A DNA stretch of 64,000 nucleotides from an uncultured SAR86 cluster bacterium (GTDB lineage: Bacteria > Pseudomonadota > Gammaproteobacteria > Magnimaribacterales > D2472), in NCBI GenBank assembly GCA_902557645.1, contig CACEAP010000005.1, positions 10,181 to 74,180 of the forward strand, given 5' to 3'. The notes under the pieces were generated by a model. The model was not told the origin of the DNA and searched no databases. It saw nothing but the letters and a program-made list of their open reading frames with translations. Shown piece by piece: positions 17,596 to 47,440 of this stretch. The translations under genes and the position numbers were made by a program. How positions within the stretch are numbered: the stretch's first letter is position 1; each line of letters begins with the position of its first letter.

Positions 17596-17700
17596 ATTTA
17601 TATAAAAATCAAACTTATAATATTTATTAGAATCTTTTATTCTGCTATGTCAAAATATAAGTATAAATCATGATTACTTCATCCCAAAAATTATAAAAAA

Positions 17701-17877
17701 ATGATTAGAAAGTTAGCTATAGATCTTATATCGCAATATGGAGATGATGCTGAAACTATTGCAATGATGAAGGCAGCAGAATATGCAGCATTATTAGATA
17801 ATGAAAACTGGCAATTATGGGAAAAGGTTATTGAGATGCTCGAACAATTGAATAACTCCAAATCACTTGATAGTTAG
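17701..17877 (+). CDS. Small conserved-looking helical protein (58 aa), below the ORF-track size cutoff
   Basis: Own translation: MIRKLAIDLISQYGDDAETIAMMKAAEYAALLDNENWQLWEKVIEMLEQLNNSKSLDS. It fills an otherwise empty gap upstream of bolA. The pattern resembles small proteobacterial hypothetical proteins (..hG.dA...a..rA......gd...W..V...i..L). Confidence 0.5.
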   Translation: MIRKLAIDLISQYGDDAETIAMMKAAEYAALLDNENWQLWEKVIEMLEQLNNSKSLDS

Positions 17878-17928
17878 AAATCTACTAGAATTAATATAAA
17901 TAGCACTTTCTCAACTTATAATACTCAC

Positions 17929-30123: not shown

Positions 30124-30411
30124 ATGAAATCATTTAAAGAAGACTTAATGGAAGCTATTGCATTAGTTTCCAATATTGAGCATCAGCTCAAGATAAATAC
30201 TCTTAATGGAAATGAGAAAACAGTCTTTTACTCTATCCTTTTAAAGGAAAAAGAAAATACGGAATGTATTATTTCTGACGTTATTAATATTTCAAAATTA
30301 TCTAGGTCAACTGTTTTTAAGACATTAAAAAAGCTTGAAGATCTTCAATTAATTTTATCTAAACAATCTACTTCTGATAAAAGAGAGCTGGTAATATCTG
30401 TTAACGTATAA
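30124..30411 (+). CDS. Small winged-helix (MarR-like) DNA-binding protein
   Basis: 95 aa from ATG 30124. The HTH-like segment is ISDVINISKLSRSTVFKTLKKLEDLQLI. The upstream part of the ORF-track frame runs through the tRNA and is discarded. Confidence 0.55.
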   Translation: MKSFKEDLMEAIALVSNIEHQLKINTLNGNEKTVFYSILLKEKENTECIISDVINISKLSRSTVFKTLKKLEDLQLILSKQSTSDKRELVISVNV

Positions 30412-32004: not shown

Positions 32005-32033
32005 TTGACTACTGTATATTTATACAGTATATT
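32005..32033 (+). promoter_or_regulatory. Sigma70-like promoter TTGACT-17 nt-TATATT
   Basis: The hexamers are read directly at 32005-32010 and 32028-32033. The -10 ends 7 nt before ATG 32041. Confidence 0.55.
32010..32029. promoter_or_regulatory. LexA (SOS) box, gammaproteobacterial type
   Basis: TACTGTATATTTATACAGTA matches the consensus TACTG(TA)5CAGTA at 19 of 20 positions, and the CTGT-N8-ACAG core is intact. Confidence 0.65.
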
Positions 32034-32040
32034 AATATTT

Positions 32041-32274
32041 ATGAATAATTTAATACACTTAAAACACGCTGATCCTATTATTGACCAGTGGACAAATGCT
32101 TTAGATAAAGATGCAGCATATAAGACAATTGCTTTTAAATTTTTTGGTGGTGATTCTGACAAACTAGATATTTATCTTGATAAATTTGGAGAATCACTTA
32201 CAAATATAAAAGTTAAAGTTAACGATATGGCAAATACTGAGGTAAGAGAATATAGACAATTAGCAATGTTTTAA
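32041..32274 (+). CDS. Hypothetical 77-aa hydrophilic protein, candidate SOS-regulated
   Basis: In-frame ATG inside ORF 32005..32274, immediately downstream of the promoter and LexA box. No recognisable family. Confidence 0.5.
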   Translation: MNNLIHLKHADPIIDQWTNALDKDAAYKTIAFKFFGGDSDKLDIYLDKFGESLTNIKVKVNDMANTEVREYRQLAMF

Positions 32275-33686
32275 ATAATTGCTTTAATTTCTAAGTATTC
32301 TTCTAACCCGTATTTACCGTGTTCTCTTCCATTTCCTGATAGCTTAAATCCACCAAAGGGTGCTGGAACTGAACCTCTGCCTATCTTATTAATTATAGAC
32401 TGACCTGAATGAATTCTTTTAGCAATATTATACCCATCATCATAGTCTAGACATGTAATATAGTTAGATAAACCATATTTTGAATTGTTTGCAATATCTA
32501 TAGCATTATCAATACTAGAATAGCTAATAATTGATAAAACTGGTCCAAATATTTCTTCTTGCGCGATAGTTGCAGAATTATCAACATTAATAAAGACAGT
32601 TGGTCTTATAAAATAACCACTATTGCAATTATCAGGATTTCCAAGTCCTCCAGTTACAATTTCATAACCTTCATCTATACCACTTTTGATAAATTCTTGA
32701 ATAGTATTATATTGTTTTTTGTTAACAACCGGTCCATGTGTGGTATTTTCATTATTTGGATCATTAAATATCAATGTTTTTATATGATTAACAATAATAT
32801 TTTTAATATTATTAATAGAAACCTCTGGAATCAATAATCTAGTTGGCGCTGAGCATGATTGCCCAGAATTAATAAAACATTGATTTATTGCATTTGGAAT
32901 AACAGCATTTAGATCAACACCTTCACAAACTATATGTGCAGATTTCCCACCAAGCTCTAATGAAACTCTTTTTACTGTTTTCGCTGCTTTTTCTTGGATA
33001 TCAATACCTGCAATTGTAGAACCTGTAAATGAAATCATTTTAATATCTGGGTGAGTTGAAATAATTGGGCCTATTTCAGAACCAATTCCATTAATACAAT
33101 TAAAACAACCTTTCGGTAAAGCTGAGTTATCAATTACATCTATAAGCAATCTACTGCTAACAGGTGAATATTCACTAGGTTTAAGAATTATAGGGCAGCC
33201 AGCTGCTATAGCTGATGCAATTTTAGTTAATGTTTGATTGAGCGGCCAATTCCATGGAGTTATTAAGGCAGATACACCAATTGGCATTTTAAAAACCTTA
33301 TAGCCATCATACTTTTCTTCAAACTTATATTTTTTAAGCTCACTAATAGTATTAATTAAATGATCTGTTCCCATTTGAATATGCGCATTGCTGGTTAAGG
33401 TAATTGGCGCTCCCATTTCAAGGGTCATAGCTTCAGCAAATTCTTTTCTTCTTACTTCTATTTGATCATTTATAGACTGTAAAACATCAATTCTTTTAAC
33501 AATACTTATATTAGCTGCAACTTTTTCATTTTCTTTAGCTGATTTAACAGCTTGATTTACTTGATCAACTGATGAGCATAGAAGAGTTCCATATTGATTC
33601 TCATTAGCAGGATTAATTAAATTAAAATTAATACCAGTTGGTTCATCAATTAAGTTACCAGCAATATAGGTGTTTGAAATTTTCAT
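32271..33686 (-). CDS. NAD(P)+-dependent aldehyde dehydrogenase
   Basis: 471 aa with the catalytic Glu motif LELGGKSA and the Cys motif FINSGQSCSAPTR. Confidence 0.9.
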   Translation of the reverse strand: MKISNTYIAGNLIDEPTGINFNLINPANENQYGTLLCSSVDQVNQAVKSAKENEKVAANISIVKRIDVLQSINDQIEVRRKEFAEAMTLEMGAPITLTSNAHIQMGTDHLINTISELKKYKFEEKYDGYKVFKMPIGVSALITPWNWPLNQTLTKIASAIAAGCPIILKPSEYSPVSSRLLIDVIDNSALPKGCFNCINGIGSEIGPIISTHPDIKMISFTGSTIAGIDIQEKAAKTVKRVSLELGGKSAHIVCEGVDLNAVIPNAINQCFINSGQSCSAPTRLLIPEVSINNIKNIIVNHIKTLIFNDPNNENTTHGPVVNKKQYNTIQEFIKSGIDEGYEIVTGGLGNPDNCNSGYFIRPTVFINVDNSATIAQEEIFGPVLSIISYSSIDNAIDIANNSKYGLSNYITCLDYDDGYNIAKRIHSGQSIINKIGRGSVPAPFGGFKLSGNGREHGKYGLEEYLEIKAII

Positions 33687-33813
33687 TTTCTTTATTATTA
33701 ATCATATAAATAAATTGTACAGTTAAAAAATTTCTAGATTAAAAGTAGATCTTATTTTATGGGTTATTGTTATATACTAATATTAATTAATGCAAAAAAA
33801 CGTGGAGGTTTCT

Positions 33814-36309
33814 ATGCATAATCTTATTAAAAATTTTACACTTTTATTTTTTTCATTCTTTACTATTTTACTCGTTGCTCAAGATAATCAACAAGATGCC
33901 AATGATGGAGTTACAGAACTAGAAGAAATAGTAGTAACAGCAACATCAAGAGAGTCGTCACTTTTAGATGTTCCATATAATATTTCAACCATTTCAGGAG
34001 CTGATTTAGAAGAAAGAGCAGTTCAGGATACTAGTGAATTACTTAGAAGTTTTGCTGGAATAAGTACAATAGACAGGGGTTATAGAAATGCAGGAACTAC
34101 TAATAGTGCAAGAATTAGGGGTTTAAATGTAGATTCATCAGCTCTTCAAGATTATCCTGTAAGTTCCGTTGCCTCAGTTTCAACTTATGTGGATAAAACT
34201 CCTATTTTCGCTAATTTTCTTTTAAAAGATCTAAAGCGTGTAGAAGTCTTAAGAGGTCCTCAGGGAACTCTTTATGGCTCAGGAGCTTTAGGTGGCACTA
34301 TAAGATATATAACTAATGATCCAATCATGGATGAGATGAGCGGAAGTGTTAATGTAACAACTTCAGATGTTACAGGCTCTAATTCACAAGGTTTTGCATT
34401 AGATTTAGTACTAAATGTCCCCTTAGCTGACAATGTAGCTTATCGATTAGCTTATTCACATGCTGACTATCCTGGTATTACAGATTATGTAAATGTTTTC
34501 AGAGTTTCAGATATTCCAGGCTTTGATTCATGGTTTGGACCAGTTGATCCATCTTATGGCGTTCCAACTCCAAGAGGAGGCACTGGTTATCCAGATTTTA
34601 TAACTTCACCACCTTCTATTAAAACAGTCCAAGATGCCGATACTGTTGGTATAGATTTTTTTAGACATAAATTATTATTTGATATTAATGAAAATATTGA
34701 ATTAGTTATTACTGCAACAACACAAGAAGATGATGTTGGAGGAAGAAGACAGGCATCAACAGGTACTAAGTACATGTTAAATGAATCATGTGTTTCATTA
34801 ATGGATGCAAATTGCTATTCAACAGGCACTTATGGTAAATATGAAAATGGAGCTTTAATGTTAGAGCCTTCTGAGAGAGAAGTTGAAGTTTATGCTTCAG
34901 AGTTAACCTACGATGCGGATAACTTTGATTTAATTGTTTCGTTATCTACATACGAAAAAACCGGTTCAAGTATTACAGATAATACTGGTTATTTTGCAGG
35001 TACTGGAGTTTATACCTCAGCGCTAGCTGGTTATTATAATCAGACAGCTGGAGGAATATGGAGTACGCCAGCAAGACCATATTCACCAGCACATAGACAA
35101 TATAGCAATTCAGCTGATACTTTAGAAATAAAATATATCTCAGAAGTGTCTGAGACATTTGATTATATTATTGGCTATTTTAATCAATCAGAAGATATGT
35201 CTAGGGCGCAACAAACTTATATTAAAGGTGTTAATGTCTGGAAGGGCTATTATTGGGGTGTTGATTATGTAATTGATCCTAATGAACAAGATTTTGATTA
35301 TCTGGTTAATGAAACAATAGATCATGAAGCTATATATGGTGAATTTACCTTCCATCTTAATGATGAATATGATTTAACTTTAGGGTTTAGAGATTTTACT
35401 TCAGATGCTGACGCTAATATGAATATGTCATTTAAACTATACAATATTGGTCCAGCAACAGATACATCAACTAATTCAGACTCAGATACTTTACTTAAAG
35501 CTAATTTGGCATACAAACCTGCAGATAATGTTACTTATTTTGCTACTTTATCTGAAGGTTTTAGACGCGGTGGTGTAAATGCTGTGCCTACAGAGGGAAC
35601 TTTTATTGAAGAGGCTGGATGGGTTCCATTTCAATCTGATACAGTCACAAATCTTGAGATTGGAGTAAAAGGTTTTGTGGGAGATACTTATTACAACATG
35701 AGTTTGTATAACGTAACTTGGGATAATCCCCAGCTTAATACTGCAACACCTGTATATGGTTACTATGCGGTAATTAATGGTGAAGAGGCTGAGACTAAAG
35801 GATTGGATCTTGAAATGCAGGGAACAGTTGGTGCATTAGATTGGAATATTGGATATGCTTTTAATGATACAAATCTTACAAAAGATCTCTTTACTCCAGC
35901 ATCTATTCCTGTTCTCTATGCAAGCAAAGGAGCAAAGCTTCCAGGCAGTCCTGAGCATATGTTAAATATTGGACTCGCTTATACTCATTATTTTAACTCT
36001 GGTATTGGTCTAGCTCAGAGACTAGATTTTTATTCTCAGTCTGATACTAGAAATTATATTGGGGATAGCTCTTTATATGATGCTAAGTTTGATGGATTTA
36101 GAATAACAAACATGTCCTCAACTTTTTTTAAAGATAATACTTATTTATCTATTTTTATAAAAAATCTAGGAAATGAAAGAGGCGTTACAGGGGCATTTTT
36201 AAACCCAGCCTTTGGACCACAGCTCTCCCAGGGTTTTTATGGAAGCAATAATAGAGAATTCTTTGCACTTCCAAGAACTTTAGGTATTTCTCTTAACAGA
36301 GCTTTTTAA
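33814..36309 (+). CDS. TonB-dependent outer-membrane receptor
   Basis: ATG 33814 sits 5 nt after GGAGG and is followed by a signal peptide. A TonB-box-like EEIVVTATSRE and plug motifs (VEVLRGPQGTLYGSGALGGTIRYITN) are present, and the barrel ends in RAF. Confidence 0.9.
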   Translation: MHNLIKNFTLLFFSFFTILLVAQDNQQDANDGVTELEEIVVTATSRESSLLDVPYNISTISGADLEERAVQDTSELLRSFAGISTIDRGYRNAGTTNSARIRGLNVDSSALQDYPVSSVASVSTYVDKTPIFANFLLKDLKRVEVLRGPQGTLYGSGALGGTIRYITNDPIMDEMSGSVNVTTSDVTGSNSQGFALDLVLNVPLADNVAYRLAYSHADYPGITDYVNVFRVSDIPGFDSWFGPVDPSYGVPTPRGGTGYPDFITSPPSIKTVQDADTVGIDFFRHKLLFDINENIELVITATTQEDDVGGRRQASTGTKYMLNESCVSLMDANCYSTGTYGKYENGALMLEPSEREVEVYASELTYDADNFDLIVSLSTYEKTGSSITDNTGYFAGTGVYTSALAGYYNQTAGGIWSTPARPYSPAHRQYSNSADTLEIKYISEVSETFDYIIGYFNQSEDMSRAQQTYIKGVNVWKGYYWGVDYVIDPNEQDFDYLVNETIDHEAIYGEFTFHLNDEYDLTLGFRDFTSDADANMNMSFKLYNIGPATDTSTNSDSDTLLKANLAYKPADNVTYFATLSEGFRRGGVNAVPTEGTFIEEAGWVPFQSDTVTNLEIGVKGFVGDTYYNMSLYNVTWDNPQLNTATPVYGYYAVINGEEAETKGLDLEMQGTVGALDWNIGYAFNDTNLTKDLFTPASIPVLYASKGAKLPGSPEHMLNIGLAYTHYFNSGIGLAQRLDFYSQSDTRNYIGDSSLYDAKFDGFRITNMSSTFFKDNTYLSIFIKNLGNERGVTGAFLNPAFGPQLSQGFYGSNNREFFALPRTLGISLNRAF

Positions 36310-36315
36310 AAGTAT

Positions 36316-37962
36316 TTGAAAAAATATTTATTACTTTTACTTTGTATTCCGCTAACTTCACAAGAGTTAGCGGATGTATTGTGGAGTAAAGCACAACTAT
36401 CAAATACATTTCATTACGCTGATATATCTAAAGCAGCTATAGATCTTCCAAATAATGGAAAATCATTTTCTGGTATTTTAAAAGTTGATCAGCCTGCTAT
36501 TGGTATTGGTTATAACGTAATAATAGATAGTAGGAAAATTTATCAAGATAATCATAAAAATATTCCAAAATTTGAAATAGAAATATCTTCCCTTGACGGT
36601 AAAGTTTATCCAAAAAATACAAAAATCATTGAAACAAACCATTTATTTTGGAATATACAATTTGGAGTTGGCTCCTCTAAACTTGAAATCTCTTCTTCTA
36701 ATACATTAATTACTCTACCTTTTAGTCTTATTCATAAATCAGCAAATTGTATACATAATGGCATTGGGGTATTTTCTATTTCAAATGATAATCAAATATC
36801 TAATATAATTTTTGAAATAGCTAGTGAAACTTGTGCATATTATAAGTTTGATTATGTAGGTTTATATTCTGCCAATTTTCAATTCACAAACGCTCTTCCA
36901 AATTTATCTAATAATAGTGATAAGAATATAATTTCTATAGAAAATCTATACAAACGATACAACTTAACCAATAAATCTTTTTTAAATTCAGATTATATTG
37001 ATCCTTCTAATGTCACTATGTTTGGTCTTATAGATAGTAATAATCACTATGTTAGTTCTTGCATGACAAGATTAGGCAATTACCCATTTTGTGATCAAAT
37101 TTTATTACCATCTTATTCTTTAGCTAAATCAATAGCAGGCACTTTTTCTTTATCTCTTTTAGAATCACAATATGGCTCAATTTCAAATTTATACGTATCT
37201 GATTTAGTCCCAGAATGTTATGGACGTAAATGGAAGAATGTGACACTTAATAATCTATCTGATATGTCTACTGGCCAATATTTTAACTCTATTCATGACT
37301 TTGACGAGAGTAGTGTCGCTTCATCAGAAGTTATTTTCATGTTTGAAGAACATAAAGATAAAATCAAGAAAGCTTGTTCGGCTTTTCCAAAAAAAACAAA
37401 ACCTGGAACCCGTTTTGTTTATCACACTTCAGATACCTACATTTTAGGACTTGCTTTAAACAACTTCTTGCAATCTAATTCAAATAGAAAAGATTATTTT
37501 AATGATGTCTTAATACCATTTCTTGAATCAAATAATTTAAGTCAAACTTCTCAATCAGTTTTGGCAACCAATGACAACATTAAACAGTCATATACTGGAT
37601 GGGGTATGTTTTTTTTAAGATCTGATTTAGATCGCTTAGCAACAATTATTCATAATATAAAGAATAACTCATCTACACAATTAACCTATTTATATGATGC
37701 ATTAAATCCAAATGATAATAATTCGTTACTGGCAATTCCCTCTGTTAATATCTATTACAATAATGGCTTCTGGTCACGTAAATTTGATAAGAATATCTTT
37801 AATTGTTCTGAGGATGTTTGGATTCCATTTATGTCAGGTTTTGGCGGAATAACTTTTGCTTTTTTTCCTAACGGTATGAGTTATTACTATTTTAGTGATG
37901 GGTATGAATTTGCTTGGGAATCAGCTATATTTTCATCACATTCTATTAAACCTTTTTGTTAA
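36316..37962 (+). CDS. Secreted beta-lactamase-fold serine hydrolase with an extra N-terminal domain
   Basis: 548 aa from a TTG start, with a signal peptide. An SxxK motif (LPSYSLAKSIAG) lies near residue 270 and a YxS/N-like motif (VYHTSDTYILG) follows downstream. The preceding roughly 250 aa are unassigned. Confidence 0.55.
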   Translation: MKKYLLLLLCIPLTSQELADVLWSKAQLSNTFHYADISKAAIDLPNNGKSFSGILKVDQPAIGIGYNVIIDSRKIYQDNHKNIPKFEIEISSLDGKVYPKNTKIIETNHLFWNIQFGVGSSKLEISSSNTLITLPFSLIHKSANCIHNGIGVFSISNDNQISNIIFEIASETCAYYKFDYVGLYSANFQFTNALPNLSNNSDKNIISIENLYKRYNLTNKSFLNSDYIDPSNVTMFGLIDSNNHYVSSCMTRLGNYPFCDQILLPSYSLAKSIAGTFSLSLLESQYGSISNLYVSDLVPECYGRKWKNVTLNNLSDMSTGQYFNSIHDFDESSVASSEVIFMFEEHKDKIKKACSAFPKKTKPGTRFVYHTSDTYILGLALNNFLQSNSNRKDYFNDVLIPFLESNNLSQTSQSVLATNDNIKQSYTGWGMFFLRSDLDRLATIIHNIKNNSSTQLTYLYDALNPNDNNSLLAIPSVNIYYNNGFWSRKFDKNIFNCSEDVWIPFMSGFGGITFAFFPNGMSYYYFSDGYEFAWESAIFSSHSIKPFC

Positions 37963-37969
37963 ATAAACT

Positions 37970-39133
37970 ATGAGTAATTCATCATTATCAACAACCTTTG
38001 ATCAATCAAGTTTTATAGCAGCAATTTTCTATAGTATTTTAGCGACTGCAGGTTTATTTTATGTAAATCTGGGTGGAGCATTTTTGTCTGCCTTTGTTGA
38101 TGGTTTAGGTGTTGAAAGAGATACAGCAGGCTTTATTGTGAGTGCAAATAAATATGGAGCTGCTTTTGGTGCCTTGATCGCAACCTTTATAGTTAAGAAT
38201 GTAGAATGGAGAAAAGCTGTTAGATTATTATTTATCGGATTAATAGTTTTTGATCTTATTTCAACACAGATTACAAATCCAAATATATTAATTTTAGTAC
38301 GTTTTATCCATGGAACAATTGGTGGGCTTTCAGTAGGAATAGGATTATCAATAATTGCAAGAACATATAATCCTGACAAAATATTTGGAATGCTCTTAGC
38401 TGTTCAATATTCATTTGGCAGTATTGGCATTCTTGCTGTTCCTAGACTTGTTGATGCATATGGTCAAGGCGCTTTATTTGCAACATTAATATGTTTCACT
38501 TTAATGACATTGATCATCTTGCCTTTTATTCCAGATGTAGATTCAAACAGCGAAACACCAAAAAATAAATCTAATTTTTATCAAATACCCTTATCTGGAC
38601 TTCTGGTCTTATCCTTATGTTGTCTATTCTTATTTCAAGCAGCAAATATGGGTGTTGCTGATTATGCTTTCGAGTTAGGTAAAGATATTGGATTGGATAA
38701 AAATGAGATATCAAACCTATTAACGATTGCTAACTTTATTTCAATTTTAGGTGGAGTACTAGTTTATATAATAGGAATTAAATTTGGTAGAACAATCCCT
38801 CTTTGTTTTGGAATATTCACCGCTGCAGTATTTACGTATTTACTTCACTATTCTGATAATGTTAATAATTATTTTATAGCGAACACTATGACTGGAATAG
38901 CATGGGGTTTTACAATTCCTTATTTATTAGGCTTATGTGCAACTTTTGACAAATTTGGCCAAATGGCTGCTTTAGCAGGGTTTATATCTAAATTAGGATT
39001 AGCATCAGGACCCCTGATTGGTGCACTTTTTATAATGACGCAAGGCTTTAGTTTTATTATTAATTTAGCAACTATAGCTTTAATAATTGCTTTATTATTT
39101 GGGGCTTATGTAGGTATGAAAAAAGAAAATTAG
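37970..39133 (+). CDS. MFS transporter
   Basis: 387 aa with about 12 TM arranged as two 6-TM halves. Confidence 0.7.
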   Translation: MSNSSLSTTFDQSSFIAAIFYSILATAGLFYVNLGGAFLSAFVDGLGVERDTAGFIVSANKYGAAFGALIATFIVKNVEWRKAVRLLFIGLIVFDLISTQITNPNILILVRFIHGTIGGLSVGIGLSIIARTYNPDKIFGMLLAVQYSFGSIGILAVPRLVDAYGQGALFATLICFTLMTLIILPFIPDVDSNSETPKNKSNFYQIPLSGLLVLSLCCLFLFQAANMGVADYAFELGKDIGLDKNEISNLLTIANFISILGGVLVYIIGIKFGRTIPLCFGIFTAAVFTYLLHYSDNVNNYFIANTMTGIAWGFTIPYLLGLCATFDKFGQMAALAGFISKLGLASGPLIGALFIMTQGFSFIINLATIALIIALLFGAYVGMKKEN

Positions 39134-39973
39134 ATGAGTATTTTAAGAGTAGCCTCATTACAACTTGAGTTAAAAAAAACCAATAACTTTAAATATGTCG
39201 TTGAAGCTATAGAAAAGTGTTTTGAAGATGATAAAAGCATTGAGTTAATTATTCTTAGTGAGTTAGCAGTAGGCGGTGCAGGAGCAAAAAATACAAATTA
39301 TGAATTAAATAAATATCTAGAGTCTTTCCAAAACTTAGCAAAAAAATTAAATGTCTGGTTAATTCCTGGATCATTTTATGAAAATGATAATGGACAAATT
39401 TTTAATACAGCCCCAATTATTAATTCAAATGGCGAGCTCGTTACAAAAGCAAAAAAACTATACCCTTGGCTTCCTTATGAATGTGATGTTGCGCATGCAG
39501 ATAATATTTGTGTCTTTGAAATACCTGATAAAGGCTTAGTGGGTGTTCATATTTGTTATGACCTCTGGTTTCCAGAAACCAGCAGGGCATTAGCATTAGC
39601 TGGAGCAGAACTAATAATTAATCCAACTTTAACACCAACTAAAGATAGAGATATTGAAACACTTATGGTTAGAACAACAGCTGCACAGCAACAACTATAT
39701 TATATTGATGTTAATAGCTGTGGTGAGCAAGGTTGTGGTAAATCAATAGTTGCTGACCCTCATGGAAATATCATGCATAATTCAGGTAATGAAGAAGATA
39801 TTTTTACTGTAGATATAGATTTTAACGTAGCAAATAATTCCAGAAGAAATGGTTTTATGGGATTAGGGCAAAATCTTAAAAGTTATAGAGATAAACCTTT
39901 CAGCATTAAAAATACAATTAATAAAAATTACCTAGATAATCTAGGTAGGCTGGATATCAATAAGGATAAATAA
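39134..39973 (+). CDS. Carbon-nitrogen hydrolase (nitrilase-superfamily amidase)
   Basis: The Glu-Lys-Cys triad context is present: IILSELAVGG, KKLYPW, GVHICYDLWFPE. Confidence 0.8.
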   Translation: MSILRVASLQLELKKTNNFKYVVEAIEKCFEDDKSIELIILSELAVGGAGAKNTNYELNKYLESFQNLAKKLNVWLIPGSFYENDNGQIFNTAPIINSNGELVTKAKKLYPWLPYECDVAHADNICVFEIPDKGLVGVHICYDLWFPETSRALALAGAELIINPTLTPTKDRDIETLMVRTTAAQQQLYYIDVNSCGEQGCGKSIVADPHGNIMHNSGNEEDIFTVDIDFNVANNSRRNGFMGLGQNLKSYRDKPFSIKNTINKNYLDNLGRLDINKDK

Positions 39974-41337
39974 TGAGTTTAAAAAAATTAGCTAAGATAG
40001 ATCAAACAAATCTATTTCATCCTATAACAAATTTAAAATCTCATGCAGAAGATGAAGATATATTAATTCTTGATAAAGGAGAGGGAGTATATGTATATGA
40101 TACTAATGGTAAAAAATATCTTGAGGGTTTGGCTGGTCTTTGGTGCACATCATTAGGCTATGGTGTTCAAGAATTAGCTGATGCTGCTTCAGAACAAATG
40201 GCAAAACTCGGTTATGCCTCTTTATTTACATCAAAAAGTCATGAACCAGCTATTAGATTAGCTGAAAAGTTAATTGATATGTCTCCATATAATAACGGTA
40301 AAGTTTTTTTTGGAAACTCAGGTTCAGATGCTAATGATACTCAATTAAAAATATTTACTTATTACAATAATGCTTTAGGAAATACTAAAAAGAAAAAAAT
40401 TATTTCAAGACTAAAAGGATATCATGGTGTTACTGTCGCAAGTGCAAGTATGACTGGTCTTCCTGCACAACATAAACTTTTTGATCTACCAGCGGAAGGT
40501 TTTTCACATATCGATACTCCTCATTATTATCATGGAGCAAAAGATAATGAATCTGAAAGTGAATTTGTTCAACGTCTTGCTAATAATTTAGATTCATTAA
40601 TATATAAAGAGGGCTCTGAGAATATAGCTGCAATGATTGCAGAACCATTAATGGGAGCAGGTGGCGTTATTATTCCTCCTAAAGATTATTTTCCTGCTAT
40701 ACAGTCTGTTCTTGATAAATATTCCATACCTCTTATTGACGATGAGGTAGTGTGTGCATTCGGAAGAACAGGAAATGTTTGGGGAGCTGAAACATTTGAT
40801 ATGAAACCATCATCTATAACTATTGCTAAAGCACTTTCTTCTGGTTATCTTCCAATTAGTGCTGTAATTATTCCAGATGAAATATATGAACCTGTTAGAG
40901 ATGCAAGTGGAGATATAGGTATATTTGGTCATGGTTATACTTACTCTGGTCATCCAGTAGCCTGCGCTGTAGCAATAAAAACACTTGAAATATATGAAAG
41001 AGATAATATTTTTCAACATGCTGCCTCTATGGGAGATTATTTTCAAACTAGAGTAAATAAATTAAATTCATTTGATAGTGTAGGAGAAGCTAGAGGTGTT
41101 GGATTGATCTGTGGAATTGAACTAGTAAGCAATAAAACAACAAAAAAAGGGTTTGATCCAATGGGTTCTGCTGGACGTGTAGTTGCTAAAGCATGTCAAG
41201 ATGAGGGGTTGATTGTAAGAGCTATTGGTGATGTTTTAGCAATGTGCCCACCATTAATTATTACAAAAAAAGAAATTGATGAAATGTTTGATATGTTTGA
41301 GATAGCATTAACTAAAGCTGAAGAGGTTATTCTTTAA
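39973..41337 (+). CDS. Class-III (omega) aminotransferase, SpuC-like amine:pyruvate transaminase
   Basis: GLWCTSLGYG, SGSDANDT, GYHGVT, AEPLMGAGGVIIPP, DEVVCAFGRTG, IAKALSSGYLP and HGYTYSGHPVA all follow the SpuC/omega-TA pattern. Confidence 0.8.
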   Translation: MSLKKLAKIDQTNLFHPITNLKSHAEDEDILILDKGEGVYVYDTNGKKYLEGLAGLWCTSLGYGVQELADAASEQMAKLGYASLFTSKSHEPAIRLAEKLIDMSPYNNGKVFFGNSGSDANDTQLKIFTYYNNALGNTKKKKIISRLKGYHGVTVASASMTGLPAQHKLFDLPAEGFSHIDTPHYYHGAKDNESESEFVQRLANNLDSLIYKEGSENIAAMIAEPLMGAGGVIIPPKDYFPAIQSVLDKYSIPLIDDEVVCAFGRTGNVWGAETFDMKPSSITIAKALSSGYLPISAVIIPDEIYEPVRDASGDIGIFGHGYTYSGHPVACAVAIKTLEIYERDNIFQHAASMGDYFQTRVNKLNSFDSVGEARGVGLICGIELVSNKTTKKGFDPMGSAGRVVAKACQDEGLIVRAIGDVLAMCPPLIITKKEIDEMFDMFEIALTKAEEVIL

Positions 41338-41366
41338 TTAATGATACTTTATGTTAAATTACAAAA

Positions 41367-42455
41367 ATGTTAATAGGCGTACCTACTGAAATTAAAAATA
41401 ATGAATATAGAGTTGGATTAACTCCTGATTCTGTTTCATCAATAGTTAATTCTGGTCATACAGTATTCATTCAAAAAGGTGCTGGTTTAGGCATTGGGTT
41501 TACTGATGAGAATTATACTAATTCCGGTGCATTAATTATTAATTCTGCTAAAGAGGTTTACCAAAAATCTGAATTAATAATCAAAGTAAAAGAGCCTGTA
41601 GAATCAGAATATGAATATTTACACAAAGATCTAACTTTATTCACTTATCTGCATTTAGCTGCAGATTCAGATATGGCAAAGAAGTTTATAGAAACTGGTG
41701 TTAGAGGTATAGCCTATGAAACTGTTACCTCAGATGATGGCTCGATGCCTCTTTTAGCCCCTATGAGCGCAATAGCAGGACAAATAAGCATAGTTGTAGG
41801 CTCATATCACTTACTAAAACACAATAAAGGTAAGGGTGTGCTCATTGGCGGCATGAATGATATAGCACCCAGAACAATTAGTATTATAGGTGGAGGCGTT
41901 GCTGGCACTGAAGCTCTTAGTAAAGCATTAGACAATAAAGCTCATGTAAAAGTAATAGATTTATCTCAAAAAAGGCTGGACGAACTCAAAGAGAAATTTG
42001 GAACTGATAATATGGAATATATATTGTCAACGCCTGAATCAATTAAAGATGCTGTATCTGAGTCTGACTTAGTTATTGGAGCAGTCTACATTCCTGGAAA
42101 AGAGGCTCCACAAATAGTTACATCAGAAATGATAAGTAATATGAAGCCAGGATCTGTAATTGTAGATATATCAATTGATCAAGGGGGTTGTATTGAAACT
42201 AGTAATCCAACAACTCATGATGCACCAACTTTTTTAGTGAATGATGTTGTACATTACTGTGTAACAAATATGCCGGGCGCAGTACCTCTAACAGCTACAT
42301 TAGCCTTGAACAAAGCCACACTCTCATACATATTAGAAATTGCTAATAATGGAATTGAAACAACTTTAAGCAAGAATCCTCATATTAAAAATGGCCTAAA
42401 TTGCGAAAATGGTCAACCTAAACATCCTGGCGTTTTAGAAATTTTTAATAAATAA
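41367..42455 (+). CDS. ald: Alanine dehydrogenase
   Basis: MLIGVPTEIKNNEYRVGLTP at the N-terminus and a Rossmann motif IIGGGVAGTEA. 362 aa. Confidence 0.85.
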   Translation: MLIGVPTEIKNNEYRVGLTPDSVSSIVNSGHTVFIQKGAGLGIGFTDENYTNSGALIINSAKEVYQKSELIIKVKEPVESEYEYLHKDLTLFTYLHLAADSDMAKKFIETGVRGIAYETVTSDDGSMPLLAPMSAIAGQISIVVGSYHLLKHNKGKGVLIGGMNDIAPRTISIIGGGVAGTEALSKALDNKAHVKVIDLSQKRLDELKEKFGTDNMEYILSTPESIKDAVSESDLVIGAVYIPGKEAPQIVTSEMISNMKPGSVIVDISIDQGGCIETSNPTTHDAPTFLVNDVVHYCVTNMPGAVPLTATLALNKATLSYILEIANNGIETTLSKNPHIKNGLNCENGQPKHPGVLEIFNK

Positions 42456-42527
42456 AATCTTAATATATTCCTTGTAGAATTTTTTTAAATCTCTGTATAT
42501 AATTTTATTGGGTGTCGTGTTTATAGA

Positions 42528-42721
42528 TTGACATGGGGATTTATAAATACTTTTATTTTTACCCTACGAAGGAGGTGGTCCTATTAGTATTAATATTAAA
42601 TCAGGAAACGGAGGATTCACCTTTTGACAAGAGGTAAATCATAAGTTTTCGACTGTAAGTTACTAAATTTTGTAACAAACAGATTTTTTAAACCCTCAAA
42701 TTAACTTTTGAGGGTTTTTTT
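42528..42721 (+). promoter_or_regulatory. Candidate cis-regulatory leader RNA (class unknown): promoter-like TTGACA-17-TTTTAT, two hairpins, then a terminator
   Basis: TTGACA at 42528-42533. A long bulged hairpin spans 42570-42625 (AGGAGGUGGUCCU / AGGAUUCACCUUUU). A second hairpin spans 42653-42682 (CUGUAAGUUAC / GUAACAAACAG). The terminator is at 42690-42721. All were folded by hand. Confidence 0.4.
42690..42721 (+). terminator. Rho-independent terminator 11 nt upstream of the EamA start codon
   Basis: AAACCCUCAAA-UUAACU-UUUGAGGGUUU followed by a U-run extending to 42721. Confidence 0.8.
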
Positions 42722-42732
42722 ATATTCTATAT

Positions 42733-43596
42733 ATGCAAATTAAGTATTGGTTATTATTAATTCTGCTTGGTGCAGTTTGGGGCAGTTCTTTTATATTTAT
42801 AAAAATTGCAACTCCTGAATTTGGTCCTATAGCTTTTGTTGGATTAAGGCTACTCCTTGCAGGTTCATTATTTCTGCCATTTTTATTAATGCCGAAATAT
42901 TTAAATCAAATTCATGGACATATATATAAAATTTTATTTCTAAGTTTATTTAATACAGCTATTCCTTTTACTCTTTTTTCATATGCTTCTTTGTACTCAA
43001 ATTCAAACATGTTGGCAATTTTAAATTCAACGGCAGCTCTATTTACAATGATAATTGCTTATTTATGGATAAATGAACCAGTTAGTAAAAAGCAATTATT
43101 GGGTTTAGTTATAGGATTTATTGGTATTTTAATAATAGTTAATCCATTTAATACACAAACAACTCTTATAGCTAGTTTAGCTTGTCTTTTAGCTGCATCA
43201 TCATATGGAACTGCTAATGTATTTATTCAAAAATTTGCTACAGATGTTAATAAATTAGTTTTAATAGGATGGTCACTAATTTTTGGTGGTTTAATTTTTT
43301 TACCATACACCATTATTTCTTTTCCAGAAGTAACACCATCAAAAGAGGCAATTCTTAGTCTTATATGGGCAGGAGCAGTTGGAACTGGCTTAGCTTTTAT
43401 TGGTTATATTCGTTTAATAGAAAAAATTGGTGCTGTTAAGACCTCAACTGTTGCTTATTTTTTACCCGTATTTGGCATTATTTGGGGTAATTTATTTTTA
43501 GATGAATTAATCACTTTCATCATTATATTTGGTTGTATTACAGTTTTAATTGGTATCTTTATAGCCAATTCGAATAAGCCGTCTGCTGAGTTGTAA
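42733..43596 (+). CDS. EamA/DMT-superfamily transporter
   Basis: 287 aa with 10 TM and two EamA repeats (WGSSFIFIK..., and WAGAVGTGLAFIGYIRLIEKIGAVKTS in the second half). Confidence 0.8.
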   Translation: MQIKYWLLLILLGAVWGSSFIFIKIATPEFGPIAFVGLRLLLAGSLFLPFLLMPKYLNQIHGHIYKILFLSLFNTAIPFTLFSYASLYSNSNMLAILNSTAALFTMIIAYLWINEPVSKKQLLGLVIGFIGILIIVNPFNTQTTLIASLACLLAASSYGTANVFIQKFATDVNKLVLIGWSLIFGGLIFLPYTIISFPEVTPSKEAILSLIWAGAVGTGLAFIGYIRLIEKIGAVKTSTVAYFLPVFGIIWGNLFLDELITFIIIFGCITVLIGIFIANSNKPSAEL

Positions 43597-43640
43597 TTCC
43601 TTATTGGAAAGTCTATATTTATATTATCTATGGAGTTTTT

Positions 43641-44012
43641 ATGGCTACAATAAATGAGTTATTAGATATTGCAAATGATTCTGTAACTCGTGTTGATTTT
43701 GATACTGCAAATGAAATGATTCTAAATGGCGCATATATAGTTGATGTACGTGAAGAATCTGAGGTTGCTCAATCAGGTAAAATTAAAGATGCTATTCATA
43801 TTCCAAGAGGATTAATAGAATTTCAATTAAGCGCTGAATCAACAACCAACCCTTTAGATATCAATAAAGATTCTGATCTTCTTATATATTGTGCCGCAGG
43901 AATTAGGGCTGCTTTAGCTGCAAAGACTCTTCAAGACCTAGGTTTTAAAAATGTTTACAACCTCGGTGGATTATCTGAATGGGTTAGCAGTGGCGGAGCT
44001 ATAGAACCCTAG
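43641..44012 (+). CDS. Single-domain rhodanese-like sulfurtransferase
   Basis: 123 aa with the active-site loop CAAGIRA (CxxxxR). A GGAG SD lies upstream. Confidence 0.75.
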   Translation: MATINELLDIANDSVTRVDFDTANEMILNGAYIVDVREESEVAQSGKIKDAIHIPRGLIEFQLSAESTTNPLDINKDSDLLIYCAAGIRAALAAKTLQDLGFKNVYNLGGLSEWVSSGGAIEP

Positions 44013-45703
44013 GGCTTAAAGTCATTATTATAAAAATTATTCATTGATTTAAATAAATTTTCTTCATAAATTTTGGTATATGACATTTCAGTTTGATAAT
44101 TCATTTGCATAGTTTTTTGATCAGAAAATCTTGGCCAACCAAACTTGCTCAAATCTCCAGTTTTTGCAAAGTTTGTCCAATCTAATCTCATTTGCCTGCC
44201 TATATCATCATCGATATTATTTTTTGGCCAACCAGGTATAAACGAATTAAATAAATACATTATTTCAGCACCATGAGTTGCACCTATAATTTGTTTTGAT
44301 GATGCTGGAGCTCGATTAAAATAATAAAAATAAGTATCTGCATTAACTTTGCTATGATTTGTTGCAGAATAATAACTTGAGCTACCAAAATTTAAATCAC
44401 CCCATAGTTTTTGAGATGCTAAATATTTATCAAGTTTTATATTTTTAGCCCAATCAATATACTCAGAGGGAATTTTGGTTGATTGGTCTGTAATAGCAAG
44501 TTTCCATATAGTACTAGTCCAATCTGAATCATTTTCATTTTGATCTTTAGTATAAAATAATGGCAGCAAACTAGAACCTTCAAAGCTATTAAAACCTATC
44601 AATAATGGCACATTATGTGTTTTACCATAACGTGATACGTTTAAATCTGAATCTTCAAAAACCCACCCATCAATAACTGGCATCCAGTAACTTGATATTT
44701 GCCAATCATCTTCACTTGTTACATTTTCACCAATAGACAAGCTTCCAACCTGTATTAGATTTTCTGCTGATATTTTTCTAAGATTATTTAAGAGATTTTC
44801 ATCTTCTATAACACCTAGAGTTCTTACAAAGTCTCTACCAGCATCTTCAGCTGACTTTACTGAACCATTTGAGGTATTTAAATTAATATAATTTCTTATA
44901 CCATAACTGCTCTGCGCAATAGCTTTATGAAATAAACCTTTTGATAAAGGTGATGACATTAATTGTCTTACAGAATGTCCGCCAGCAGATTCACCAAATA
45001 TAGTAATATTATCAGGATCACCACCAAAGGCTTCTATATTATCTTTTATCCATTTAAGTGCATGTATTTGATCTAGAGTGCCATAGTTACCAGAGGAATT
45101 ATTTTTTGACTCAGCAGAAAGAGCTGGATGCGCAAAATATCCCATAGAACCTAATCTATAATTAATTGATACAATAATTACATCATTTTTAACCAGATCT
45201 TCATTTAAATAGGAACCAGATCCATTACCGTATCTATAACCACCACCATGAATCCACATCATTACTGGTAGTTTTTTATTAATATTTTTTGGGGTAACTA
45301 TATTTAAATAAAGACAATCTTCTGATTGATTATCTTCGCCATTTAAAAATGGCATAAGACCAGCCCCCAGATATATTAATTTTTTAGAAAACCAGCTCAT
45401 TCCTGAACCTTCGATCCATAGTTCAATAAAAGCATTTAAACCATACTCAACAGGTTGCATACATGAATTGGGTAACTCAATTGCTAAAAGTTTATCATTC
45501 CAACCTTTATGTTCTAGAGGAGGTTTCCATCTAAGCTGATTTATCGGAGGTTCAGCATAAGGTATACCCTCAAAAATATTTACAGCATTTCCCTCGTAAC
45601 CATATATATCACCTTGACTTATAGTTATCTTTTCGGTGAGCACTTTATCTTTTTCAGCACAACCAACCAAAAAGATAAATAATAGAGCACATAAATATTT
45701 CAT
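44009..45703 (-). CDS. Type-B carboxylesterase/lipase-family lipoprotein
   Basis: The nucleophile motif is FGESAGG and the oxyanion region is HGGGY. ATG 45703 is preceded by AAGGGGG, and the lipobox is FLVGC. Confidence 0.85.
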   Translation of the reverse strand: MKYLCALLFIFLVGCAEKDKVLTEKITISQGDIYGYEGNAVNIFEGIPYAEPPINQLRWKPPLEHKGWNDKLLAIELPNSCMQPVEYGLNAFIELWIEGSGMSWFSKKLIYLGAGLMPFLNGEDNQSEDCLYLNIVTPKNINKKLPVMMWIHGGGYRYGNGSGSYLNEDLVKNDVIIVSINYRLGSMGYFAHPALSAESKNNSSGNYGTLDQIHALKWIKDNIEAFGGDPDNITIFGESAGGHSVRQLMSSPLSKGLFHKAIAQSSYGIRNYINLNTSNGSVKSAEDAGRDFVRTLGVIEDENLLNNLRKISAENLIQVGSLSIGENVTSEDDWQISSYWMPVIDGWVFEDSDLNVSRYGKTHNVPLLIGFNSFEGSSLLPLFYTKDQNENDSDWTSTIWKLAITDQSTKIPSEYIDWAKNIKLDKYLASQKLWGDLNFGSSSYYSATNHSKVNADTYFYYFNRAPASSKQIIGATHGAEIMYLFNSFIPGWPKNNIDDDIGRQMRLDWTNFAKTGDLSKFGWPRFSDQKTMQMNYQTEMSYTKIYEENLFKSMNNFYNNDFKP

Positions 45704-47246: not shown

Positions 47247-47247
47247 T

Positions 47248-47324
47248 TGGCGCGCCCGGGAAGATTCGAACTCCCGACCCCTTGGTTCGAAGCCAAGTAC
47301 TCTATCCAGCTGAGCTACAGGCGC
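47248..47324 (-). tRNA. tRNA-Arg (anticodon TCG)
   Basis: The reverse complement GCGCCTGTAGCTCAGCTGGATAGAGTACTTGGCTTCGAACCAAGGGGTCGGGAGTTCGAATCTTCCCGGGCGCGCCA folds as a cloverleaf with anticodon loop CTTCGAA. It is close to E. coli tRNA-Arg. Confidence 0.9.
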
Positions 47325-47440
47325 TATTAATTTTTTCTATTGTATAATTTTTAGAAGTTTTCAGGAAAGAATTATCCTATTTGTTTATGTAGTTTTATAT
47401 AATATTTAATATACTATAAGTACATTAATAGGGGGTTTTT

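Follow-up and report, generated by a model that had tools for sequence, protein, structure and literature searches.

A conserved structured RNA directly upstream of eamA in the SAR86 cluster, a candidate cis-acting leader

The DNA analysed here is a stretch of 64,000 nucleotides (nt), referred to below as the window (contig CACEAP010000005.1, positions 10,181 to 74,180), and EamA relatives from one-genome-per-species data place it in the SAR86 cluster of the Gammaproteobacteria. The subject of this study is the gap at 42456-42732, flanked by the stop codon (42455) of the alanine dehydrogenase gene ald and by the ATG (42733) of eamA, which encodes a transporter and is followed by a rhodanese gene (Table 1). 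No credible gene lies in this gap, its sole open reading frames (ORFs) being 34 and 25 amino acids (aa) long. To judge from comparative sequence analysis, the gap encodes on the plus strand a conserved, structured RNA that is linked to eamA and is absent from Rfam and from the literature searched. The predicted folding of the gap beat all 200 of 200 shuffled sequences (z = -3.4, both strands compared). The original prediction, made from the letters of the window, had described the gap as the longest non-coding stretch; it is one of the two longest, since the region at 17596-17928, located between divergent genes and containing only ORFs of 38-58 aa, extends over 333 nt. ORFs of at least 100 aa cover about 97% of the window.

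Table 1. Features of the gap between ald and eamA and of the flanking genes (window coordinates)
Feature	Position	Strand	Remarks
ald, alanine dehydrogenase	41367-42455		directly upstream of the gap in the window
Promoter -10 region TGTATATAAT	42494-42503	+	TATAAT hexamer at 42498-42503
Predicted 5' end GGGUGUC	42510-42516	+	start predicted from -10 spacing alone
Hairpin H1	42517-42550	+	double changes in 10 of 11 tested pairs; pairing in 95.7% of cells
Joining strand, 53 nt, largely invariant	42551-42603	+	U-rich tract, CCCU, box 1, AUUAGUAU, 13-nt A/U-rich variable linker
Box 1, GGAGGUGGUCCU	42571-42582	+	
AUUAGUAU	42583-42590	+	part of the joining strand
P3	42604-42609 with 42645-42650	+	98.2% of cells pair; 2 pairs change on both sides
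Box 2, GGAGGA	42610-42615	+	enclosed by P3
P4 core	42619-42623 with 42631-42635	+	enclosed by P3; 98.7% of cells pair; 3 pairs change on both sides
Alternative helix Pa (earlier "long bulged hairpin")	42571-42582 with 42612-42624	+	mutually exclusive with the P4 5' arm
G-R-C (42651-42653, 3' strand of candidate P1), then hairpin H5 (42653-42682)	42651-42682	+	C42653 common to both
AUUUUUU spacer and intrinsic terminator	42683-42721	+	stem 42690-42700 with 42707-42717, U-tract to 42721
Spacer to the eamA start, 11 nt	42722-42732	+	no Shine-Dalgarno sequence
eamA, DMT-family transporter, 287 aa	42733-43596	+	Pfam EamA, 150 bits
Rhodanese, single-domain, 123 aa	43641-44012	+	co-directional with eamA; Pfam Rhodanese, 60 bits

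A protein similarity search revealed EamA orthologues with 54-85% aa identity in 14 SAR86 genomes, and in all 14 of these genomes, retrieved through the EamA protein, the element (called the leader below from its position) lies directly 5' of eamA. Across these loci, which were thus found via the protein and not via a pattern, GGAGGUGGUC..AUUAGUAU is invariant. A metagenome scan with this pattern returned at least 120 loci, and the larger alignments and counts given below (77-101 versions) draw on the matches listed from it. The original prediction had pointed to the upstream regions of orthologous genes as the place to look for conservation; in these regions both sequence and structure are kept, and the helices covary. 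Among the matches listed, all of the more than 100 metagenome loci with enough 3' DNA have an eamA start 140-170 nt past the pattern, with the exception of L120, which is probably a chance match, and of L062, considered below.

The gene on the upstream side varies by lineage. It is ald in the clade of the window and in the clade of locus L013, while 112 loci among the matches listed carry directly 5' of the leader a 70-aa ORF without a Pfam match, preceded by a 97-aa MarR/TrmB-like gene (compare L137:2167-2721). Homologues of both are found in the window about 10 kb upstream of the leader, the 70-aa ORF at 32005-32274 and the MarR/TrmB-like gene at 30139-30405, and a gene block at 32271-42455, comprising genes for an MFS transporter, a C-N hydrolase, a class-III aminotransferase, ald and others, appears to have been inserted before the leader. 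Since the 70-aa ORF is now some 10 kb away and the leader is still beside eamA, the RNA has stayed with eamA through this rearrangement of the neighbourhood. On the downstream side, 82 of 86 loci have the rhodanese gene after eamA. The exceptions, L013, L084, L087 and L092, represent the most divergent clade, which has the leader and eamA with no detectable rhodanese directly after them, so that the conserved unit is the leader plus eamA. The gap might also be taken for the 3' untranslated region and terminator of ald joined to an unremarkable promoter region of eamA, without any function as a structured RNA, as the gene next upstream in the window is ald and the base composition is AT-rich. 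This explanation is hardly credible, being contradicted by the equal conservation of the element where the upstream gene is not ald, by the covariation of its helices, and by the conservation of the RNA core, which is stronger than that of EamA and the flanking proteins.

Searches of the window and of 868 kb of related DNA disclosed no second copy of the leader, and it is absent 5' of more distant EamA genes of Bdellovibrionales and Rhodocyclaceae (L015, L016). BLASTN of the leader against E. coli genomes and a pattern scan of viral contigs gave no match.

The TATAAT hexamer noticed earlier at 42498-42503 is present and is conserved as such in 94 of 99 distinct versions, three more having TATACT; TGTA just before it shows 80-95% conservation. 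The hexamer ends exactly 10 nt before GUC at 42514-42516 in 88 of 97 versions, this GUC being invariant in 95 of 95 sequences. By the usual distance between a -10 region and the start, transcription would be expected to begin near 42510; conservation and covariation begin at about the same position, and an RNA extending from there to the end of the U-tract at 42721 would be roughly 212 nt long. The original prediction had proposed a further promoter, TTGACA (42528-42533) separated by 17 nt from TTTTAT (42551-42556). Both hexamers are present, but they are not a conserved promoter, being inside the conserved RNA: TTGACA forms the 3' end of the 5' arm of hairpin H1 together with the start of its loop, and is restricted to the window's own clade. 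The small RNA (sRNA) of about 160 nt that was thought to originate from this promoter thus had its start misplaced, the conservation and covariation from about 42510 giving a length of about 212 nt. Logan contigs, tried as a proxy for transcript ends, were uninformative, since both break at the same point of the leader, most likely as an effect of assembly.

The folded core of the RNA, at 42510-42654, was analysed in an alignment of 95 distinct sequences covering 42509-42654 (A3), alongside a full-leader alignment of 101 sequences (A2). Over all helices of the proposed structure 97.8% of 3115 cells pair, compared with 33-56% when the partners are slid by 1-3 columns; 17 pairs change on both sides, and none of 500 shuffles reached the observed values. 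The exchanges in P3 are from C-G to U-A and from A-U to G-C. The many G-U pairs indicate that the plus strand is the functional strand. The H1 loop (42529-42538) holds GGGG at 42535-42538, in which GGG is invariant and two of 95 sequences have U in place of the fourth G. The joining strand bears CCCU (42562-42565, invariant in 95 of 95) and GGAGGUGGUCCUAUUAGUAU, and the P4 loop UUUUGACA is also invariant, with UUUUGAC(A) at 42622-42629. The picture obtained in this way is that of a junction-type domain, in which H1 and a P3-P4 arm would be linked by the 53-nt strand.

Three additional pairings may contribute to this domain. GUC at 42514-42516 could pair with G-R-C at 42651-42653 as a closing helix P1 (100% of cells pair, with U42515 facing A or G, and no compensatory change occurs), the GGGG of the H1 loop could pair with CCCU in every sequence, and UCCU at 42579-42582 could pair with AGGA at 42612-42615 (98% of cells pair, with compensatory change in two pairs). 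All three are put forward as hypotheses, which fit all sequences yet barely vary. A pairing of UGUC at the 5' end with GACA of the P4 loop, suggested by RNAalifold, was rejected, as its first pair is lost through uncompensated changes of U to C or A. Pairing of GUC with G-R-C is preferred over pairing of GUC with the P4 loop since it closes the domain, covariation deciding neither. In a mutual-information scan for further pseudoknots, clade markers dominated the signal.

The long bulged hairpin that was originally drawn at 42570-42625 rests on real complementarity, but it is an alternative pairing that conflicts with the covarying P4. This helix, Pa, comprises 12 pairs, in which 98.5% of cells are able to pair; its 5' strand is the same in all sequences, and its 3' strand undergoes only transitions that preserve pairing. 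Constrained folds gave mean energies of -28.7 kcal/mol for the Pa state and -33.8 kcal/mol for the P3/P4 state, and Pa was the more stable in 14 of 95 sequences. To go by these models, Pa and P3/P4 may alternate.

A translating ribosome is one agent that could remodel these helices. In such a ribosome-mediated attenuator, box 1 would be a Shine-Dalgarno (SD) sequence driving an upstream ORF of 14 codons, from AUU at 42583 to UGA at 42625-42627. GGAGG is indeed located 7 nt before this AUU. All 77 distinct versions keep this frame open without a change in length, whereas of the two other frames one is open in 31 versions and the remaining one in none; the stop codon falls inside the invariant loop of P4. 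A perfect SD sequence is also conspicuous in a window where an SD-like tetramer precedes the start by no more than 20 nt in just 7 of 42 long ORFs, so that initiation in this SAR86 genome appears to be mostly SD-independent. However, the frame lacks three-base periodicity (summed entropy of 5.7, 5.4 and 5.2 bits at codon positions 1, 2 and 3), and all substitutions are transitions explained by RNA pairing. The GGAGG of box 2 shifts by one base in divergent versions, with GG replaced by WR or RS, which moves it out of frame; for lack of codon periodicity and owing to this shift, a coding reading of the AUU frame was rejected. Moreover, AUU is a rare start codon, and about 60 nt, including a stable hairpin, separate the stop codon from the terminator. 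Control of eamA by a ribosome on this frame is therefore considered improbable.

Downstream of the core, exactly two hairpins are predicted by RNAfold between G-R-C and the ATG in all 101 versions. The first of them, H5, was already recognised in the window (42653-42682) and is present there; it is always found as a shape, its sequence being too divergent for column-wise alignment. The second is the intrinsic terminator, and the earlier assignment at 42690-42721 is sound, this being the sole terminator-like site on the plus strand in 41000-45000. In the window the stem has 11 pairs, of which 4 are G-C, and is followed by U7. All 101 versions possess a terminator of 7-16 pairs (9-12 in 95 of them), including 4-6 G-C pairs, with a mean energy of -14.5 kcal/mol and a U-run, and the distance from the predicted end of its stem to the ATG is 2-19 nt.

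The 11 nt between the terminator and eamA had been described as containing no promoter and no SD sequence. The spacing, the lack of an SD sequence, which is normal for this window, and the lack of a conserved -10 element all hold, but the window has a TATATT of its own at 42721-42726. A -10-like hexamer occurs between the terminator and the ATG in 1 of 101 versions, namely the window itself; as this hexamer is 6 nt before the eamA ATG, a leaderless eamA mRNA is possible in principle in this strain. An internal promoter, TATAA[ACT] just 5' of the terminator, was rejected, since it is found in only 40 of 101 versions, the window not included. For the conserved strand and the eamA start region, predicted long-range pairing did not exceed that of shuffled sequences.

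With no conserved promoter for eamA other than that of the leader, and with the terminator reaching up to the start codon, eamA transcripts would have to start at the leader promoter and pass the terminator; through this dependence the RNA would act in cis as a leader, irrespective of any further role. What we infer about the start of transcription, the dependence on read-through, the switching and the existence of a ligand is as follows. A plus-strand RNA of about 212 nt, produced from its own promoter (-10 at 42498-42503, start at about 42510), would constitute the 5' leader of a transcript that covers eamA and the rhodanese gene. The junction domain, in which a GUC:GAC terminal helix closes H1, the joining strand and the P3-P4 arm, would be made up of the initial 145 nt (42510-42654), with GGGG of the H1 loop pairing with CCCU and UCCU with AGGA as possible tertiary contacts. 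H5 would come next, and then the strong terminator, ending 11 nt before the ATG, so that eamA would be expressed only from transcripts reading through it. The conserved domain would serve as a sensor, either a small-molecule aptamer or a factor-binding site, setting the fraction of read-through. Candidate moving parts are structures that exclude each other: Pa versus P3/P4, which are nearly iso-energetic and both compatible with the sequences, and P1 versus the base of H5. Neither pair touches the terminator. That the RNA is a cis-acting leader and riboswitch candidate, with eamA expressed by read-through of the terminator, has in our estimation about an even chance, and not a higher one because the link from sensor to terminator is missing. 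We would classify the RNA as a structured cis-leader, or orphan riboswitch candidate: a known kind, of which it forms a new class. Of the riboswitch or attenuator architecture that the original prediction proposed, the conserved structured leader and the terminator abutting eamA stand, and regulated termination is a conjecture. The suggestion of a sulfur metabolite or an amino acid as the ligand is likewise conjectural and was derived from gene names only; the four loci of the most divergent clade are without the rhodanese.

Several observations weigh against a regulatory leader. No conserved antiterminator was identified in the versions analysed. In folds up to the terminator loop the C-rich 5' arm of the terminator pairs with the 5'-terminal GGG in 74 of 101 versions, about 15% of versions being without that GGG, and the best partners of this arm are short G-runs, namely GGGG of the H1 loop, box 2 and the P4 3' arm, with duplex energies only slightly better than those of shuffled arms (-9.1 compared with -7.3 kcal/mol). 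A stable H5 stands between the terminator and the conserved domain. The RNA is confined to one gene family and one clade, most riboswitch classes being broader, and an invariant single strand of 20 nt is more typical of RNAs that pair with nucleic acids or bind proteins than of a small-molecule pocket. Covariation is no test of P1 or of GGGG with CCCU, because both are invariant. In the metagenome set the search forced box 1 and the 18 pattern bases to be invariant, so that independent evidence for this stretch comes only from the 14 genome loci. Finally, L062, a possible relative, is a stand-alone transcript and not a leader.

A serious rival, which we regard as possible though on balance doubtful, is a stand-alone sRNA of about 212 nt that acts in trans, through base pairing or through binding of a protein or the ribosome, eamA being passively co-transcribed by leaky termination. 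Such an sRNA would be expected to have a promoter and a terminator of its own, and here the promoter is conserved and the terminator strong and U-tailed. The 20-nt invariant single-stranded stretch is seed-like, although this putative seed is purine-rich and SD-like and not of the C/U-rich, anti-SD type usual in repressing sRNAs, and no target complementarity was found at the eamA start region. The 3' Hfq-binding module of enterobacterial sRNAs is a hairpin and a U-run before the terminator; many versions of the SAR86 RNA resemble it, but the U-run before the terminator is absent in about half of them. The failure to find an antiterminator and the fact that L062 leads no gene also agree with an sRNA. 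Against it, adjacency to eamA is 100% among the listed loci, and the terminator is 2-19 nt from the ATG, which leaves no space for a conserved promoter, so that eamA would depend on the promoter of the RNA under this reading as well.

The leader could also be bound by a dedicated RNA-binding protein in place of a metabolite, as are ribosomal-protein leaders or the leaders recognised by PyrR, CsrA or ANTAR-type proteins. The narrow phylogenetic range, the single operon and the long invariant single-stranded segments would agree with such a partner, and GGA occurs five times in the core, once in the H1 loop. The 70-aa ORF without a Pfam match, which is directly upstream in 112 of the matches listed, might seem a candidate, but in the window it is 10 kb away, and nothing points to any particular RNA-binding protein. 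No known family matches either: the scores of 26 bits for PyrR (threshold 54) and 17 bits for RsmY (threshold 57) arise mainly from 3' hairpins. We regard a dedicated protein partner as rather unlikely.

The sole match of the whole window to Rfam 15 at the gathering threshold is a tRNA at 47251-47324, in keeping with the original view that the RNA fits no recognised class. In permissive scans (E up to 5-10) of the region and of two divergent homologues, loci L013 and L007, all hits were below threshold and driven by the terminator or hairpins. The best hits were PyrR in the region (26.1 bits, threshold 54), MicC in L007 (32 bits, threshold 90) and Phe_leader in L013 (33.9 bits, threshold 55), the last resting on a near-identical terminator only. 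The clade of L013, L084, L087 and L092 has a terminator (GAAGCCUCC...GGAGGCUUC) that hardly differs from the one in the enterobacterial Phe leader model. The only riboswitch model to appear was SAM-II, on the minus strand and below threshold (20 bits compared with 44). No description of this RNA was found in the literature searched, which dealt with SAR86 RNAs, EamA riboswitches, riboswitch discovery and Ms_IGR-5.

The closest parallel in architecture considered here is with riboswitches that terminate transcription, above all with ykkC subtype 2d, orphan riboswitch candidates preceding EamA and TauE transporter genes, the ligand of which is unsolved (PMC7266159). Like these, the SAR86 leader has a multi-helix domain, a possible closing helix and an intrinsic terminator just before a DMT/EamA gene; unlike these, it has a different fold, occurs in one clade only and has no antiterminator identified. 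No ykkC-type model was among the matches of the region at E up to 10. The elements GGUCC and ACGG.GGA bear an apparent resemblance to ykkC features, but a match to the ykkC-type fold and consensus was not obtained. As in riboswitches generally, the covarying helices H1, P3 and P4 would be situated in a 5' leader directly upstream of a gene, here eamA, but the recurrence across lineages and related genes that marks riboswitches is not seen, the RNA occurring with eamA only and in SAR86 only among the loci examined.

Enterobacterial sRNAs of the Hfq type share with the SAR86 RNA a -10 element of its own, a hairpin, U-run and U-tailed terminator, and a conserved single strand. A promoter and a Rho-independent, U-tailed terminator are thus predicted here too, whereas an independent gene followed by a neighbour with its own promoter is not found: the SAR86 RNA always abuts the start codon of the same gene without an intervening promoter, and its conserved strand is SD-like and not anti-SD-like. 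The sub-threshold hits to sRNA models (MicC and others) span the 3' hairpins only. Leader-peptide attenuators such as Phe_leader (RF01859) and His_leader resemble the SAR86 leader in having a short SD-preceded frame, alternative helices and a terminator before the operon, but the SAR86 frame starts with AUU and has neither runs of regulatory codons nor codon periodicity.

The stand-alone locus L062:1-192 (plus strand) originates from a metagenome contig of 69% GC. It contains CCCUAC..GGAAAGGAGGUGGUCUUAUUAGUAU, then exactly 19 nt, and then GGAGG, as in the SAR86 leader. Its RNA ends in a terminator of its own, and the next gene is convergent and BioY-like. Box 1 of L062 is buried in a helix of 13 pairs with GGACCGCCUCCU. 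L062 scores 26 bits (E = 3.7e-4, threshold 45) against Ms_IGR-5 (RF02471), an actinobacterial sRNA without an assigned function, the consensus of which begins with GGAAGGAGGUGGUC. The covariance model of the SAR86 RNA gives L062 13 bits, and nhmmer gives E = 6e-4 over about 40 nt. Ms_IGR-5 itself has no hit in the window, and BLASTN of L062 against plasmids found no match. What L062 has in common with the SAR86 leader is box 1 and the 19 nt between it and a second GGAGG, whereas the structure downstream differs. Homology of L062 and the SAR86 leader is possible on these sequence similarities.

Box 1 is complementary over 11 nt to GGAUCACCUCC, the near-universal 3' tail of 16S rRNA. That a genome in which SD sequences are seldom used should keep a perfect complement of the anti-SD is odd and calls for explanation, and because this complement is so conspicuous, sensing of 30S subunits or of initiation was considered as a further reading. 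The leader would then sense the translation machinery and not a metabolite, and L062 and Ms_IGR-5, with their common layout of box 1, spacer and GGAGG, would belong to the same widespread, unrecognised class. The invariant 11-nt complement of the 16S tail, GGAGGUGGUCC, would pair with an internal mimic of the tail, GGAUUCACCUUUU, with AUU at ideal spacing, and Pa would be opened, and the fold reset, either by free 30S subunits or by initiation at AUU that depends on IF3. We consider this very improbable.

The RNA matters beyond its locus for several reasons. Few heterotrophic lineages in the surface ocean are as abundant as the SAR86 bacteria, which have few protein regulators; control by RNA is expected in them and almost undescribed. 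A new leader class at a DMT/EamA exporter, if confirmed, would offer a handle on the substrate of the transporter. About 100 distinct versions with clear covariation make a well-populated alignment for an orphan riboswitch candidate.

Two features of the surrounding DNA may be added. The tRNA gene mentioned above is on the minus strand, inside a gap of 194 nt (47247-47440). Upstream of the leader, at 39134-42455, genes for a C-N hydrolase, a class-III (omega) aminotransferase and alanine dehydrogenase follow the MFS transporter in tandem, and this looks like a cluster for utilisation of omega-amino acids or amines, of the type that combines a pyruvate-dependent transaminase with Ald.

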